Assembly (NCBI RefSeq): GCF_057098645.1
Contig: NZ_CM169472.1
DNA: 64,000 nucleotides
Strand: one strand, 5' to 3'
Below the pieces are notes generated by a model that saw nothing but the letters and a program-made list of their open reading frames with translations, had not been told where the DNA came from and did not search any database. Numbering within the stretch: the first letter of the stretch is position 1; each line of letters opens with the position of its first letter. This document shows, one piece after another, positions 9,902 through 30,502 of the stretch. Position numbers and translations under genes: made by a program.

Positions 9902-10792
9902 ATGAACATGAAAAAACTGGCTACCCTGGTTTCCGCTGTTGCGCTAAGCGCCACCGTCAGTGCGAATACGATGGCAAAAGACACCATCGCGCTGGTGGTC
10001 TCCATGCTTAACAACCCGTTCTTTGTATCGCTGAAAGATGGCGCGCAGAAAGAGGCGGATAAACTTGGCTATAACCTGGTGGTGCTGGACTCCCAGAACA
10101 ACCCGGCGAAAGAGCTGGCGAACGTGCAGGACTTAACCGTTCGCGGCACAAAAATTCTGCTGATTAACCCGACCGACTCCGACGCAGTGGGTAATGCTGT
10201 GAAGATGGCTAACCAGGCGAACATCCCGGTTATCACTCTTGACCGCCAGGCAACGAAAGGTGAAGTGGTGAGCCACATTGCATCTGATAACGTACTGGGC
10301 GGCAAAATCGCCGGTGATTACATCGCGAAGAAAGCGGGTGAAGGTGCCAAAGTTATCGAGCTGCAAGGCATTGCTGGTACATCCGCAGCCCGTGAACGTG
10401 GCGAAGGCTTCCAGCAGGCCGTTGCTGCTCACAAGTTTAATGTTCTTGCCAGCCAGCCAGCAGATTTTGATCGCACCAAAGGTTTGAACGTAATGCAGAA
10501 CCTGTTGACCGCTCATCCGGATGTTCAGGCTGTATTCGCGCAGAATGATGAAATGGCGCTGGGCGCGCTGCGCGCACTGCAAACTGCCGGTAAATCGGAT
10601 GTGATGGTCGTCGGATTTGACGGTACACCGGATGGCGAAAAAGCGGTTAATGATGGCAAACTAGCAGCGACTATCGCTCAGCTACCCGATCAGATTGGCG
10701 CGAAAGGCGTTGAAACCGCAGATAAAGTGCTGAAAGGCGAGAAAGTTCAGGCTAAGTATCCGGTTGATCTAAAACTGGTTGTTAAGCAGTAG
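9902..10792 (+). CDS. rbsB: periplasmic ribose-binding protein
   Basis: Start [17 protein letters not shown] (signal peptide), 296 aa. Confidence 0.93.
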
Positions 10793-10917
10793 TTTTAATC
10801 AGGTTGTATGACCTGATGGTGACATAAATACGTCATCGACAGATGAACGTGTAATATAAAGAAAAGCAGGGCACGCGCCACCCTAACCCGGTGGCGCATT
10901 TTATGGACATCCCGAAT

Positions 10918-11847
10918 ATGCAAAACGCAGGCAGCCTCGTTGTTCTTGGCAGCATTAATGCTGACCATATCCTTAATCTTCACTCTTTTCCTACTCCAGG
11001 CGAAACCGTAACCGGTAACCACTATCAAGTTGCATTTGGCGGCAAAGGCGCAAATCAGGCTGTGGCTGCTGGGCGTAGCGGTGCGAATATCGCGTTTATT
11101 GCCTGCACTGGCGATGACAGTATTGGCGAGAGTGTTCGCCAGCAGCTCGCCACTGATAACATCGATATTACTCCGGTCAGCGTGATCAAAGGCGAATCAA
11201 CAGGTGTGGCGCTGATTTTTGTTAATGGCGAAGGTGAGAATGTCATTGGTATTCATGCCGGCGCTAATGCTGCCCTTTCCCCGGTGCTGGTGGAAGCGCA
11301 ACGTGAGCGTATTGCCAACGCGTCAGCATTATTAATGCAGCTGGAATCACCACTCGAAAGTGTGATGGCAGCGGCGAAAATCGCCCATCAAAATAAGACT
11401 ATCGTTGCGCTTAACCCGGCTCCGGCTCGCGAACTTCCTGACGAACTGCTGGCGCTGGTGGACATTATTACGCCAAACGAAACGGAAGCAGAAAAGCTCA
11501 CCGGTATTCGTGTTGAAAATGATGAAGATGCAGCGAAGGCGGCGCAGGTACTGCATGAAAAAGGTATCCGTACTGTACTGATTACTTTAGGAAGTCGTGG
11601 TGTATGGGCTAGCGTGAATGGCGAAGGTCAGCGTGTTCCTGGATTCCGGGTGCAGGCTGTCGATACCATTGCAGCCGGAGATACCTTTAACGGCGCGTTA
11701 ATCACGGCGTTGCTGGAAGAAAAACCGTTGCCAGAGGCTATTCGTTTTGCTCATGCCGCCGCTGCGATTGCCGTAACGCGTAAAGGCGCACAACCTTCCG
11801 TACCGTGGCGTGAAGAGATCGACGCATTTTTAGACAGGCAGAGGTGA
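10918..11847 (+). CDS. rbsK: ribokinase
   Basis: Start at MQNAGSLVVLGS, 309 aa, PfkB-family motifs. Confidence 0.93.
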   Translation: MQNAGSLVVLGSINADHILNLHSFPTPGETVTGNHYQVAFGGKGANQAVAAGRSGANIAFIACTGDDSIGESVRQQLATDNIDITPVSVIKGESTGVALIFVNGEGENVIGIHAGANAALSPVLVEAQRERIANASALLMQLESPLESVMAAAKIAHQNKTIVALNPAPARELPDELLALVDIITPNETEAEKLTGIRVENDEDAAKAAQVLHEKGIRTVLITLGSRGVWASVNGEGQRVPGFRVQAVDTIAAGDTFNGALITALLEEKPLPEAIRFAHAAAAIAVTRKGAQPSVPWREEIDAFLDRQR

Positions 11848-11850
11848 CGC

Positions 11851-12843
11851 TTGGCTACAATGAAAGATGTTGCCCGCCTGGCGGGCGTTTCTACCTCAAC
11901 AGTTTCTCACGTTATCAATAAAGATCGCTTCGTCAGTGAAGCGATTACCGCCAAAGTTGAAGCGGCGATTAAAGAACTCAATTACGCGCCATCAGCTCTG
12001 GCGCGTAGCCTCAAACTCAATCAAACACATACCATTGGCATGTTGATCACTGCCAGTACTAATCCTTTCTATTCAGAACTGGTGCGCGGCGTTGAACGCA
12101 GCTGCTTCGAACGCGGTTATAGTCTTGTCCTTTGCAATACCGAAGGCGATGAACAGCGGATGAATCGCAATCTGGAAACGCTGATGCAAAAACGCGTTGA
12201 TGGCTTGCTGTTACTGTGCACCGAAACGCATCAGCCTTCGCGTGAAATCATGCAGCGTTATCCGACAGTGCCTACCGTGATGATGGACTGGGCTCCGTTC
12301 GATGGCGACAGCGATCTTATTCAGGATAACTCGTTGCTGGGCGGAGACTTAGCAACGCAATATCTGATCGATAAAGGTCATACCCGTATCGCCTGTATTA
12401 CCGGTCCGCTGGATAAAACTCCGGCGCGCCTGCGGTTGGAAGGTTATCGGGCGGCGATGAAACGTGCGGGTCTCAACATTCCTGATGGCTATGAAGTCAC
12501 TGGTGATTTTGAATTTAACGGCGGGTTTGACGCCATGCGCCAACTGTTATCACATCCGCTGCGTCCTCAGGCCGTCTTTACCGGAAATGACGCTATGGCT
12601 GTTGGCGTTTACCAGGCGTTATATCAGGCAGAGTTACAGGTTCCGCAGGATATCGCGGTGATTGGCTATGACGATATCGAACTGGCAAGCTTTATGACGC
12701 CACCATTAACCACTATCCATCAACCGAAAGATGAACTGGGGGAGCTGGCGATTGATGTACTTATCCATCGGATAACCCAGCCGACCCTTCAGCAACAACG
12801 ATTACAACTTACTCCGATTCTTATGGAACGCGGTTCGGCTTAG
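11851..12843 (+). CDS. rbsR: LacI-family ribose operon repressor
   Basis: 330 aa, N-terminal helix-turn-helix [23 protein letters not shown]. Confidence 0.95.
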
Positions 12844-14236
12844 ATTTACGCTGTCTTTTGATCAAATTATTACCATCGGTTGTTTTCAGAAGCATGAACA
12901 TTGCTGCTGAAGCAACAGTAATAATGCCCATCGTGATAAACGTATAGTGGAATTGTTCGACAGTCGTTGTGCCTTCCATCCCTTCATAAACGCGAAGGAC
13001 GGCCGCACTTACAGCAACGCCTAAACTGATAGACAGTTGCTGCGTGACCGCCAGAACACTGTTACCGCTGCTGGCGTTGTCATCGGTCAGATCGGCAAGT
13101 GTGATGGTATTCATCGCGGTAAACTGCGTCGACATAGCCATCCCTAATATAAACAACGGCAAGATCAGCATCCATATCGCCATTGCCGGTGATTGCAAAG
13201 AGAACTGAGCGATCATTAGCCCAATAATCACCGTGATCCCCACTAATGTATGGCGATAGCCCAGACGACGTAAGACTTGGGTAACCATCGATTTTGCAAT
13301 AATGGAACCTAACGCTGTCGGTGCCATCATACAGCCGGCAATAAACGCCTGATAACCAAATCCTACCTGTAACATCAATGGCATAAGGAACGGTACACAG
13401 CCGGTCCCCAGACGGGTTGCAATATTGCCTACGATACCGATCGAGAAAGTGCGGGTTTTAAATAAATCTAATGAAATTAATGGGTTTGGCGTGCGTCGTG
13501 CATGGAGAATATAGAGAAGCAGTAACCCGATGCTGGTGACAATTACCGTCAAGGCAATCCAGCTGGCGACAATCTTTTCCCCGAATAGCTCTATTCCGCT
13601 TGAGAAGAGAACAAGGCTGAGGCCAAACAGCAAAAAGCCAGTGATATCGAATCTGCGTCGTGCGGTGGTGAAATTGGGCATATGTTTGCGCGCGTAAAGA
13701 AGGCCCGCAATACCTATGGGGATATTGATTAAAAATATCCAGTGCCAGGTTGCCCAGGTGACCAGCACGCCGCCAAGAACGGGGCCTAAAATTGGCCCCA
13801 CCAGACCCGGCATGGCGACAAAATTCAATACTGGAAGAAGTTCATTACGAGGATAAGCGCGCAGTAAGGCCAGCCGAGCAACAGGCATCATCATTGCGCC
13901 GCCTATCCCCTGAATAACCCGGAAGACAACCAGCTGTGGTAGCGAGTTGGAAAGTGCGCAGGCCAGAGAACCCAACGTGAACAGACTCACGGCAAGGGTA
14001 AAAATGCGACGCGTACCGAAGCGATCGGCTAGCCATCCGCTTACCGGAATAAGCATCGCCACCGTCAGCGTATAACTGATGATGGCTGATTGCATCGCGA
14101 GAGGAGAACGATTAAGGCTATGAGCGATTGCGGGTAAGGCGGTATTCAGAATAGTGGCATCAAGTGCCTGCATGAAGAAGGCCATCGCCGCGATCCACGG
14201 CAAACCCGCCATACTGCGCTTCTTTTTATCGCTCAT
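12821..14236 (-). CDS. hsrA: MFS-family efflux transporter (HsrA/YieO)
   Basis: 471-aa multi-helix ORF; its 3' end overlaps the rbsR 3' end by 23 bp; true start may lie slightly upstream. Confidence 0.85.
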
Positions 14237-14258
14237 TCAATGTCCTGTTATCGGGTTA

Positions 14259-14951
14259 TCACTTATCAGGTGAGCGTAGCAGCGCCTGACAAGCTTTAAA
14301 TGCCGCGTCGCCATCGCTTTGGATAATCGCATCGACAATCGCCTGATGCAGATCCAGCTTTATCACTGTGTCGCTGGTAATTGACGTGAAGTAAGTGTGA
14401 TAAACCGAATGGAATAGCGAGGCGAATGAGGTCAAAAACGGATTGGCGCTCATTTCATAGATATGCTCATGCCAGGCCATATCGACTTCGATCCAGCGTT
14501 CACGGCGAAAGTTCTCTTTTAATGCCGCCATTTCGGCCATTAACGTATTGAGATGCGCTTTCTGTTCTGCGGTGCCAACCGTTGCTGCCAGTAGGCAGGC
14601 TTGCGGCTCCAGACAGATACGCATAACCAGAAAGTGATCGATGACCTGATGAAAGTTCTCTTCTGTCATCCACCAGGTAAGCAATTCCTGATCAAGAAAA
14701 TTCCAGTTCGATTGTGGCATTACCCGGGTACCAATTCGCGGTCGCGGTAAAACCATCCCTTTTGCCGTTAACGTTTTGACCGCTTCGCGTACCGCTGTAC
14801 GACTCACTCCAAATTGCTCGCCCAGCTCAATCTCACCGGGCAAAATGGTGCCGGGTTCATATTCACCTTTTAAGATCCGTTGCGCCAGCTTCTCAGCCAG
14901 AACATACGAAAGGTTTTTCTGTGCAGCTAACTGTTGTGCGCTTAAAGGCAT
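14259..14951 (-). CDS. yieP: GntR/FadR-family transcriptional regulator
   Basis: 230 aa with N-terminal GntR-type helix-turn-helix. Confidence 0.85.
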   Translation of the reverse strand: MPLSAQQLAAQKNLSYVLAEKLAQRILKGEYEPGTILPGEIELGEQFGVSRTAVREAVKTLTAKGMVLPRPRIGTRVMPQSNWNFLDQELLTWWMTEENFHQVIDHFLVMRICLEPQACLLAATVGTAEQKAHLNTLMAEMAALKENFRRERWIEVDMAWHEHIYEMSANPFLTSFASLFHSVYHTYFTSITSDTVIKLDLHQAIVDAIIQSDGDAAFKACQALLRSPDK

Positions 14952-15103
14952 TACTAATCTTCCTTTTTCTTTTTATTCCTCCTTAGTATGCCACCAGGAA
15001 GTGTGATTACGGTTGCAAAAACGGCAAATTGCTTGTTTTATGGCACATTAACGGGGGTTTTGCTGAAAAAATGCGCGGTCAGAAAATTATTTTAAATTTC
15101 CTC

Positions 15104-15250
15104 TTGTCAGGCCGGAATAACTCCCTATAATGCGCCACCACTGACACGGAACAACGGCAAACACGCCGCCGGGTCAGCGGGGTTCTCCTGAGAACTTCAG
15201 CAGAGAAAGCAAAAACAAATGCTTGACTCTGTAGCGGGAAAGCGTATTAT
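15104..15250 (+). promoter_or_regulatory. tandem rRNA promoters P1 and P2
   Basis: P1 -35 TTGTCA (15104-15109) and -10 TATAAT (15126-15131), with an A/T-rich UP-like tract upstream; P2 -35 TTGACT (15223-15228) and -10 TATTAT (15245-15250). Confidence 0.8.
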
Positions 15251-15288
15251 GCACACCCCGCGCCGCTGAGAAAAAGCGAAGCGGCACT

Positions 15289-15300
15289 GCTCTTTAACAA
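15289..15300 (+). promoter_or_regulatory. boxA antitermination element in the rRNA leader
   Basis: GCTCTTTAACAA, an exact match to the boxA consensus. Confidence 0.8.
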
Positions 15301-15431
15301 TTTATCAGACAATCTGTGTGGGCACTCGAAGATACGGATTCTTAACGTCGCAAGACGAAAAATGAATACCAAGTCTCAAGAGTGAACACGTAATTCATTA
15401 CGAAGTTTAATTCTTTGAGCATCAAACTTTT

Positions 15432-28957: not shown

Positions 28958-30502
28958 ATGGCTGACTCACAACCCCTGTCCGGTGCCCCGGAAGGTGCCG
29001 AATATTTAAGAGCGGTGCTACGCGCACCGGTCTACGAGGCGGCGCAGGTTACGCCGCTACAAAAAATGGAAAAGCTCTCGTCTCGTCTTGATAACGTGAT
29101 TCTGGTGAAACGCGAAGATCGCCAGCCAGTGCACAGCTTTAAGCTGCGCGGCGCATACGCCATGATGGCGGGCCTGACGGAAGAACAAAAAGCGCACGGC
29201 GTGATCACTGCTTCTGCGGGTAACCACGCGCAGGGCGTCGCGTTTTCTTCTGCGCGGTTAGGCGTGAAGGCCCTGATCGTTATGCCAACCGCCACCGCCG
29301 ACATCAAAGTCGACGCGGTGCGCGGCTTCGGCGGCGAAGTGCTGCTCCACGGCGCGAACTTTGATGAAGCGAAAGCCAAAGCGATCGAACTGTCACAGCA
29401 GCAGGGCTTCACCTGGGTGCCGCCGTTCGACCATCCGATGGTGATTGCCGGGCAAGGCACGCTGGCGCTGGAACTGCTCCAGCAGGATGCTCATCTCGAC
29501 CGCGTATTTGTGCCAGTCGGCGGCGGCGGTCTGGCTGCTGGCGTGTCGGTGCTGATCAAACAACTGATGCCGCAAATCAAAGTGATCGCCGTAGAAGCGG
29601 AAGACTCCGCCTGCCTGAAAGCAGCGCTGGATGCGGGTCATCCGGTTGATCTGCCACGCGTGGGACTGTTCGCCGAAGGTGTCGCGGTAAAACGCATCGG
29701 CGACGAAACCTTCCGTTTATGCCAGGAGTATCTCGACGACATCATCACCGTCGATAGTGATGCGATCTGTGCGGCGATGAAGGATTTATTCGAAGATGTG
29801 CGCGCAGTGGCGGAACCCTCTGGCGCGTTGGCGCTGGCGGGAATGAAAAAATATATCGCTCAGCACAACATTCGCGGCGAACGCCTGGCGCATATTCTTT
29901 CCGGTGCTAACGTGAACTTTCACGGCTTGCGCTACGTCTCGGAACGCTGCGAACTGGGCGAACAGCGTGAAGCGTTGCTGGCGGTCACCATCCCGGAAGA
30001 AAAAGGCAGCTTCCTCAAATTCTGCCAGCTGCTTGGCGGGCGCTCGGTCACCGAGTTCAACTACCGTTTTGCCGATGCCAAAAACGCCTGCATCTTTGTC
30101 GGCGTGCGCCTGAGCCGCGGCCTCGAAGAGCGCAAAGAAATTTTAAAGATGCTCAACGACGGCGGCTACAGCGTGGTTGATCTCTCCGACGACGAAATGG
30201 CGAAGTTGCATGTGCGCTATATGGTCGGCGGGCGTCCGTCACATCCGTTGCAGGAACGCCTCTACAGCTTCGAATTCCCGGAATCACCGGGCGCGCTGCT
30301 GCGCTTCCTCAACACGCTGGGTACGCACTGGAACATTTCTTTATTCCACTATCGCAGCCATGGCACCGACTACGGGCGCGTACTGGCGGCGTTCGAACTT
30401 GGCGACCATGAACCGGATTTCGAAACCCGGCTGAATGAACTGGGCTACGATTGCCACGACGAAACCAATAATCCGGCGTTCAGGTTCTTTTTGGCGGGTT
30501 AA
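28958..30502 (+). CDS. ilvA: biosynthetic threonine deaminase
   Basis: 514 aa, protein recognised. Confidence 0.96.
   Translation: MADSQPLSGAPEGAEYLRAVLRAPVYEAAQVTPLQKMEKLSSRLDNVILVKREDRQPVHSFKLRGAYAMMAGLTEEQKAHGVITASAGNHAQGVAFSSARLGVKALIVMPTATADIKVDAVRGFGGEVLLHGANFDEAKAKAIELSQQQGFTWVPPFDHPMVIAGQGTLALELLQQDAHLDRVFVPVGGGGLAAGVSVLIKQLMPQIKVIAVEAEDSACLKAALDAGHPVDLPRVGLFAEGVAVKRIGDETFRLCQEYLDDIITVDSDAICAAMKDLFEDVRAVAEPSGALALAGMKKYIAQHNIRGERLAHILSGANVNFHGLRYVSERCELGEQREALLAVTIPEEKGSFLKFCQLLGGRSVTEFNYRFADAKNACIFVGVRLSRGLEERKEILKMLNDGGYSVVDLSDDEMAKLHVRYMVGGRPSHPLQERLYSFEFPESPGALLRFLNTLGTHWNISLFHYRSHGTDYGRVLAAFELGDHEPDFETRLNELGYDCHDETNNPAFRFFLAG

Follow-up and report, generated by a model that had tools for sequence, protein, structure and literature searches.

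Tail-to-tail overlap of rbsR and hsrA in Escherichia coli and its probable origin by drift of stop codons

Convergent genes whose coding regions overlap at the 3' ends are a well-described class in bacteria. A census of E. coli found 663 overlapping pairs of adjacent genes, 75 of them convergent (PMC4161906). Members of such prokaryotic pairs are bona fide genes that share short 3' ends (Kingsford et al. 2007; Huvet & Stumpf 2014). According to the former study, as cited in PMC3887535, the lengths of convergent overlaps are explained by random extension of a 3' end to the next stop codon.

Three further described situations resemble the locus considered here. Excludons are neighbouring genes with overlapping transcripts, their defining property being mutually exclusive expression. 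ExcludonFinder (NAR 2025) lists pairs by overlap of transcript boundaries, which are defined by coverage; synteny is higher for the listed pairs than for other pairs, and the dsRNA (p19) validation was unsuccessful for convergent pairs (PMC12288877). The genes mscL and arfA lie tail to tail in Enterobacterales, with spacing that ranges from overlapping to proximal depending on the species, and their mRNAs have complementary 3' ends. In E. coli this pair has antisense regulation, established by deletion and complementation, and arfA contains a stem-loop cleaved by RNase III (PMC10070815). Finally, Rho terminates read-through RNA that is untranslated or antisense (PMC7815308; Peters et al. 2012, as cited there), and antisense regions, at 51.5%, outnumber every other class of Rho termination region (PMC7815308).

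The overlap of rbsR and hsrA, two real genes joined tail to tail, is ordinary and most likely results from drift of stop codons rather than from selection for regulation. Nothing essential distinguishes it from the other convergent overlapping pairs, and it is one of about 75 in E. coli. As in prokaryotic convergent pairs generally, the length of the overlap shifts among relatives through loss and gain of stop codons and through frame shifts, the 4-bp class being common. The overlap itself is already known: E. coli genomes, K-12 among them, are routinely annotated with it, and a published list of overlapping transcription units contains the pair. Being a member of a well-described class, it matters little as such. 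Three points are added here. The 23-bp form is an allele of the O145 STEC lineage created by one SNP, which is synonymous in rbsR but introduces a stop codon in hsrA; across Enterobacteriaceae the junction has slid between a gap of 2-3 nt and an overlap of 53 bp, with both stops moving; and the shared bases are constrained by RbsR rather than by HsrA.

The window is the whole analysed stretch of 64,000 nucleotides of E. coli DNA. In it, rbsR occupies positions 11851-12843 of the plus strand (330 aa, TTG start, TAG stop at 12841-12843), and hsrA, also called yieO, occupies 12821-14236 of the minus strand (471 aa, the TAA stop being the reverse complement of TTA at 12821-12823). Both genes are present in the ORF list and in the RefSeq annotation of the O145 strain RM9872, which is 99.9% identical to the window over 901 nt across the junction (12400-13300) and has rbsR and hsrA with identical ends. 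The earlier note on this DNA had reported a convergent 3' overlap of 23 bp at 12821-12843, and this is exact in the raw sequence, in the ORF list and in the RM9872 annotation. The shared segment encodes the end of RbsR, LMERGSA, and its stop on the plus strand, and the end of HsrA, (K)PNRVP, and its stop on the minus strand. The genes thus lie on opposite strands and share 3' coding sequence including both stop codons, as expected of a convergent overlapping pair.

Judged by homology, both genes are genuine protein-coding genes, since RbsR matches an NCBIfam equivalog and HsrA matches models of MFS transporters. RbsR is the ribose operon repressor of the LacI family; model NF007743 covers residues 1-330 of 330 with 697 bits, and the match to Pfam Peripla_BP_3 extends to residue 329. 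HsrA is a transporter of the DHA2 type of the MFS, with Pfam MFS_1 at residues 17-406 and NCBIfam NF007799 at residues 13-465. The last six residues of HsrA, all encoded by the overlap, are outside every family model matched. Orthologues with 82-96% identity were found in 80 species (the 80 best loci of the scan described below). One could suppose that either RbsR or HsrA really ends elsewhere than at its annotated stop, so that there is no true coding overlap. The variation of the hsrA stop between strains (471 or 475 aa) and the position of the HsrA tail outside all family models would agree with such an annotation artefact. However, a reading frame fixes its stop, both frames are backed by full-length homology to within a few residues, independent annotations agree, and either stop of hsrA still gives an overlap, of 23 or 35 bp. 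This explanation is hardly credible.

The gene yieP, encoding a regulator of the FadR/GntR family, lies 22 nt upstream of hsrA (14259-14951, minus strand; ORF list and annotation). yieP and hsrA have been described as one operon, and YieP activates its own transcription (PMC11340327). The transcription of hsrA is thus likely to come from yieP. The name of hsrA is not uniform. In thousands of genomes, RM9872 among them, RefSeq/PGAP labels it "mdtD: multidrug transporter subunit MdtD", and in the K-12 record it is hsrA, "putative transporter". The former label comes from NF007799, a subfamily model that the protein matches with 458.7 bits, the cutoff being 426. As a name transferred from this model, it does not indicate MdtD function.

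In K-12 the annotated overlap is longer. There rbsR occupies 3938227-3939219 and hsrA 3939185-3940612 (475 aa), so that 35 bp are shared. Alignment of the window with K-12 reveals a single base difference inside the overlap, at position 12822, which is T in the window and G in K-12. In rbsR this SNP changes CTG to CTT, both leucine codons, and is synonymous; in hsrA it changes the serine codon TCA (Ser472) to the stop codon TAA. HsrA thereby loses its last four residues (SESE) and has 471 aa instead of 475, and the overlap shrinks from 35 bp to 23 bp. The stop of the K-12 type, TAA at 12809-12811 of the minus strand, is still in frame, 12 nt beyond the new one (stop scan and alignment). The earlier note had held that a different true stop of either gene would refute its reading. 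For hsrA, most E. coli indeed have their stop 12 nt further on, but this lengthens the overlap to 35 bp instead of removing it.

The K-12 allele (exact match of 56 nt) was found in 4414 of 5413 complete E. coli records (about 81%), and the allele of the window (also exact, 56 nt) in 31 complete E. coli records, mostly O145 or O145:H28. A third allele that was inspected, in strain CX12, also has a 35-bp overlap. By these counts the norm of E. coli is 35 bp, and the 23-bp form is an allele mostly of named O145 strains, that is, of the O145 STEC lineage. Two natural isolates have a disrupted junction. In strain 1162C (NZ_CP051659.1, 1329-2498) an element of the IS3 family, ISEc52, is inserted between rbsR and hsrA, both of which are truncated. 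In isolate JNE181771 (NZ_AP027156.1, 1752-3838) a deletion joins a truncated rbsK to a truncated hsrA, and rbsR is gone.

The species survey was one scan of species-representative genomes, of which the 80 best loci, from Escherichia to Buttiauxella and Klebsiella, were considered. In all 80 species an rbsR orthologue is convergent with and abuts hsrA, with a gap of at most 3 nt or an overlap. Among these best loci, a gap of 2-3 nt was observed in eight species, of Kluyvera and Phytobacter. The two stop codons overlap by 4 bp in 26 species. An overlap of 9 bp is present in six species, mostly of Kosakonia, and one of 24 bp in a single species. The largest class, of 35 bp, contains 34 species of Escherichia, Citrobacter, Salmonella, Enterobacter and Leclercia. 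Five species (Lelliottia, Huaxiibacter and one Enterobacter) have 53 bp. In the latter class the usual stop of rbsR is lost and RbsR gains six C-terminal residues (…RGSVSAGGDL). The overlap is that long because RbsR is six codons longer, and both stops have shifted.

A trace of a shorter arrangement is visible in E. coli. The minus strand contains a TAA triplet at 12840-12842 (stop scan), which is out of frame for hsrA (frame offset 1). It occupies the same place relative to the rbsR stop as the stop of hsrA in the 26 species with the 4-bp overlap. The classes differ in how far the rbsR stop lies from the conserved NLIK codons, by numbers of nucleotides that are not multiples of three. Consequently, a change of frame in the HsrA tail most likely bypassed the old stop, with translation continuing to the next one. 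The overlap length is not conserved between species, and in the compared genomes its variation is attributable to changes of stop codons and of frame in the unconserved tail of HsrA.

The following sequence of events would account for these observations. rbsR, the last gene of rbsDACBKR, and hsrA, the second gene of yieP-hsrA, would have been adjacent without a spacer since before the divergence of the sampled Enterobacteriaceae, and the older state was likely the 4-bp overlap of two stop codons. In the group of Escherichia, Citrobacter, Salmonella and Enterobacter, a change of frame in the cytoplasmic tail of HsrA, which is short and not conserved, would have skipped the old stop. Translation of HsrA would then continue to the next TAA, situated within the Leu-Thr codons of rbsR, which gives 35 bp. 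In the O145 STEC lineage the G-to-T substitution, silent in rbsR, would have made a TAA four codons earlier and reduced the overlap to 23 bp. An extension of this size does not need a special explanation. Once a stop is lost, random sequence would continue for 10 codons without another one with a probability of 0.62, so a run-on like that at the junction is unremarkable and the overlap is not beyond chance.

The two proteins do not contribute equally to the conservation of the shared segment. The conserved core of HsrA ends at about …KDGRNLIKERHK, and beyond this point both length and sequence vary. Where the overlap is 35 bp (34 species), mean pairwise identity over the 11 C-terminal residues is 88% for RbsR, with nine variants, against 66% for HsrA, with 24 variants. 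For RbsR the overlap encodes residues of a folded domain, versus only a tail outside all models for HsrA. The frames are offset such that the wobble positions of rbsR are the second codon positions of hsrA, and thus silent drift in rbsR rewrites the HsrA tail. The pattern of substitutions indicates that the shared bases are constrained by RbsR, the HsrA tail being a passenger.

We analysed the junction for signals of transcription termination. On the plus strand, a consensus scan of 11500-14600 found no terminator-like hairpin followed by a T-run. On the minus strand of the same region it found four terminator-like sites, against 3.2 expected from shuffled sequences, and the first 780 nt or so past the hsrA stop contain none of these. 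A segment of 181 nt across the junction does not fold better than shuffled sequences do (z = +0.08 and -0.06 for the two strands), and Rfam has no match at the junction. The claim of the earlier note that there is no terminator between the genes thus agrees with the consensus scan, the folding and the Rfam search. A bidirectional intrinsic terminator, that is, a G+C-rich hairpin between an A-tract and a T-tract, was also considered and rejected, as there is no terminator-like site near 12821-12843 on either strand and the fold z-scores are close to zero. Further away, at 15059-15310 of the plus strand, just upstream of the 16S rRNA gene, there is a sub-threshold Rfam match to the Yersinia sRNA Ysr197 (82 bits, gathering threshold 167, E = 1e-18), which is probably a conserved leader or promoter region of rrn and not an sRNA.

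A notable structure is inside the 5' part of rbsR. A perfect hairpin of 9 bp at 11923-11946 (both strands, -12.6 kcal/mol, z = -3.3) is followed on the minus strand by CUUUAUUGAU and is the most convincing terminator-like element on the path of hsrA read-through. It looks like an intrinsic terminator for the latter. On the plus strand, a Term-seq 3' end of K-12 at 3938325, which corresponds to window position 11949, lies 3 nt past the hairpin, and a region of Rho termination is recorded at 3938387 (window 12011, score 3.77), also on the plus strand inside the 5' part of rbsR (PMC7815308). The combination of the hairpin, the 3' end and the Rho region some 60 nt further suggests that rbs transcripts are prematurely terminated or processed inside rbsR. 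With the 3' end at 11949 and the Rho region at 12011, many rbs transcripts in LB never reach the junction. Still further upstream, K-12 has an annotated sRNA, RbsZ, derived from the 3' end of rbsB and equivalent to about 10669-10902 of the window. A very strong Term-seq 3' end coincides with its 3' boundary at 3937278 (PMC7815308). This implies a terminator upstream of rbsK-rbsR, which limits the transcription able to reach the junction of rbsR and hsrA.

All transcript data are from K-12, which has the 35-bp allele and not that of the strain of the window; the offset between the two coordinate systems is 3926376. In the direction of hsrA, Adams et al. (2021) recorded a bicyclomycin-sensitive region of Rho termination on the minus strand at 3938923, classified as "antisense rbsR", with a Rho score of 2.78 and p of 7.6e-6 (PMC7815308, supplementary file 2). 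The numbers of reads upstream and downstream are 102 and 32 in untreated cells, and 164 and 143 with bicyclomycin, so that the downstream/upstream ratio is 0.31 and 0.87, respectively (PMC7815308). In the window this corresponds to 12450-12700 of the minus strand, the recorded position mapping to about 12547, which is 262 nt past the hsrA stop of K-12 and 274 nt past that of the window. The plus strand has a GC skew of +0.18 to +0.22 at 12450-12549 and 12600-12699, and accordingly the RNA of the minus strand is richer in C than in G. Thus the K-12 literature has shown that hsrA read-through is terminated by Rho within antisense rbsR. The junction shares the drop sensitive to bicyclomycin with other cases of antisense read-through, being documented in one direction. 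In the rbsR direction, the tables of the same study list neither a 3' end nor a Rho region from the rbsR stop as far as 3947193, and on the minus strand they contain no discrete Term-seq 3' ends for hsrA or antisense rbsR (PMC7815308). Past the rbsR stop the excess of C over G on the plus strand is modest.

The earlier note had stated that transcription of one gene must run antisense into the other. Indeed, an mRNA containing its own stop is antisense to the partner gene over at least 23 nt, and the K-12 data agree with this. Antisense overlap of transcripts, as in excludons, is required by the overlap of the coding regions, and is consistent with the K-12 literature. Each RNA polymerase would transcribe past its own stop into the antisense strand of the partner gene, as the genes leave no space for a terminator between them and none of the hairpin type is close by. 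Such mutual read-through would produce two mRNAs with complementary 3' ends. The read-through RNA would be untranslated and terminated by Rho, as follows from the K-12 data for the hsrA direction and as we infer for the rbsR direction. Both genes being weakly transcribed, any effect on their expression is probably negligible; in K-12 few reads were counted for either direction, about 100 per 800 nt (PMC7815308).

One alternative is that the junction acts as a non-canonical, Rho-independent terminator, where converging polymerases collide, stop and release each other in both directions. Such terminators are prevalent between convergent pairs of E. coli according to Ju et al. (2019), as summarised in bioRxiv 10.1101/2022.10.23.513370, and no canonical terminator was found at the junction of rbsR and hsrA. 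On the other hand, by the account in this preprint, the mechanism requires a stem-loop in the RNA that fixes where the polymerases collide, and favours highly expressed pairs, whereas this junction has no stem-loop and both genes are weakly expressed. Moreover, the minus-strand read-through is sensitive to bicyclomycin, that is, Rho-dependent, and Term-seq 3' ends are not reported at the junction on either strand (PMC7815308). Termination by collision is therefore very unlikely here.

Another possibility is that the pair is a functional convergent excludon, in which the junction is maintained without a spacer and transcription of one unit represses the other. It could act by head-on collision of RNA polymerases, by cleavage of the 3'-end duplex by RNase III, or by both. 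The repressing unit could be rbsDACBKR, induced by ribose and acting on yieP-hsrA, or yieP-hsrA, activated by YieP and acting on rbsR. The transcript overlap is unavoidable, and rbsR-hsrA is among the 165 convergent excludons of ExcludonFinder, being recorded in at least 50% of 58 transcriptomes of K-12 MG1655 (PMC12288877). Read-through from hsrA continues for at least 262 nt antisense to rbsR (PMC7815308), the abutment is kept in 80 of 80 species (80 best loci), and the analogous mscL-arfA pair provides a precedent of antisense regulation in E. coli. The abutment in all the sampled species could reflect selection for it, and not mere inheritance.

However, as the listing uses boundaries defined by coverage, expressed pairs with overlapping coding regions enter it almost automatically. 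rbsR-hsrA shares with excludons the convergent neighbours and the overlapping transcripts, and is listed by coverage overlap alone; reciprocal expression of rbsR and hsrA was not found in the literature. The failure of the p19 validation concerns convergent pairs in general. The junction varies from a gap to 53 bp and has no conserved sequence or structure beyond the coding of RbsR, and in this it is unlike mscL-arfA with its cleaved stem-loop. The reads are low, and in LB most rbs transcripts are already cut in the 5' part of rbsR by Rho and at the internal 3' end. Finally, the junction is destroyed in some natural isolates, by the insertion of ISEc52 and by the deletion. Taken together, this makes a functional excludon unlikely. 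To our knowledge, there is no functional link between ribose catabolism and HsrA. A selected cis-regulatory coupling is also quite improbable. Under such coupling, ribose-induced read-through would silence yieP-hsrA, or hsrA transcription driven by YieP would lower the synthesis of RbsR, through collision or through RNase III decay triggered by the duplex, with Rho setting the antisense reach. If the regulatory reading were true, it would add one further control of the excludon type, tying a sugar operon to an uncharacterised efflux pump, which would be of moderate interest only. In summary of the evidence on the K-12 transcripts and on the species survey, a regulatory consequence of the overlap between ribose regulation and efflux is unlikely, and an ordinary overlap formed by drift of stop codons is preferred.

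Similar junctions occur nearby. The window and the corresponding stretch of RM9872 are collinear base for base only up to about 23,800. In the RM9872 stretch there are seven convergent pairs of coding regions, and two of the seven overlap by annotation. The genes ilvA and ilvY of RM9872 overlap by 4 bp at 30497-30500 of the stretch, past about 23,800, where its collinearity with the window stops. The genes asnA and viaA are separated by 4 nt (1771/1776), and maoP and yifB by 23 nt (22049/22073); both pairs of positions are from the RM9872 annotation and hold as window coordinates. The ilvA/ilvY and asnA/viaA pairs have the same architecture as rbsR/hsrA, with a shorter overlap or a small gap. 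The pair asnA-viaA is also in the excludon list (PMC12288877), and Rho regions were recorded antisense to both of its genes (PMC7815308).
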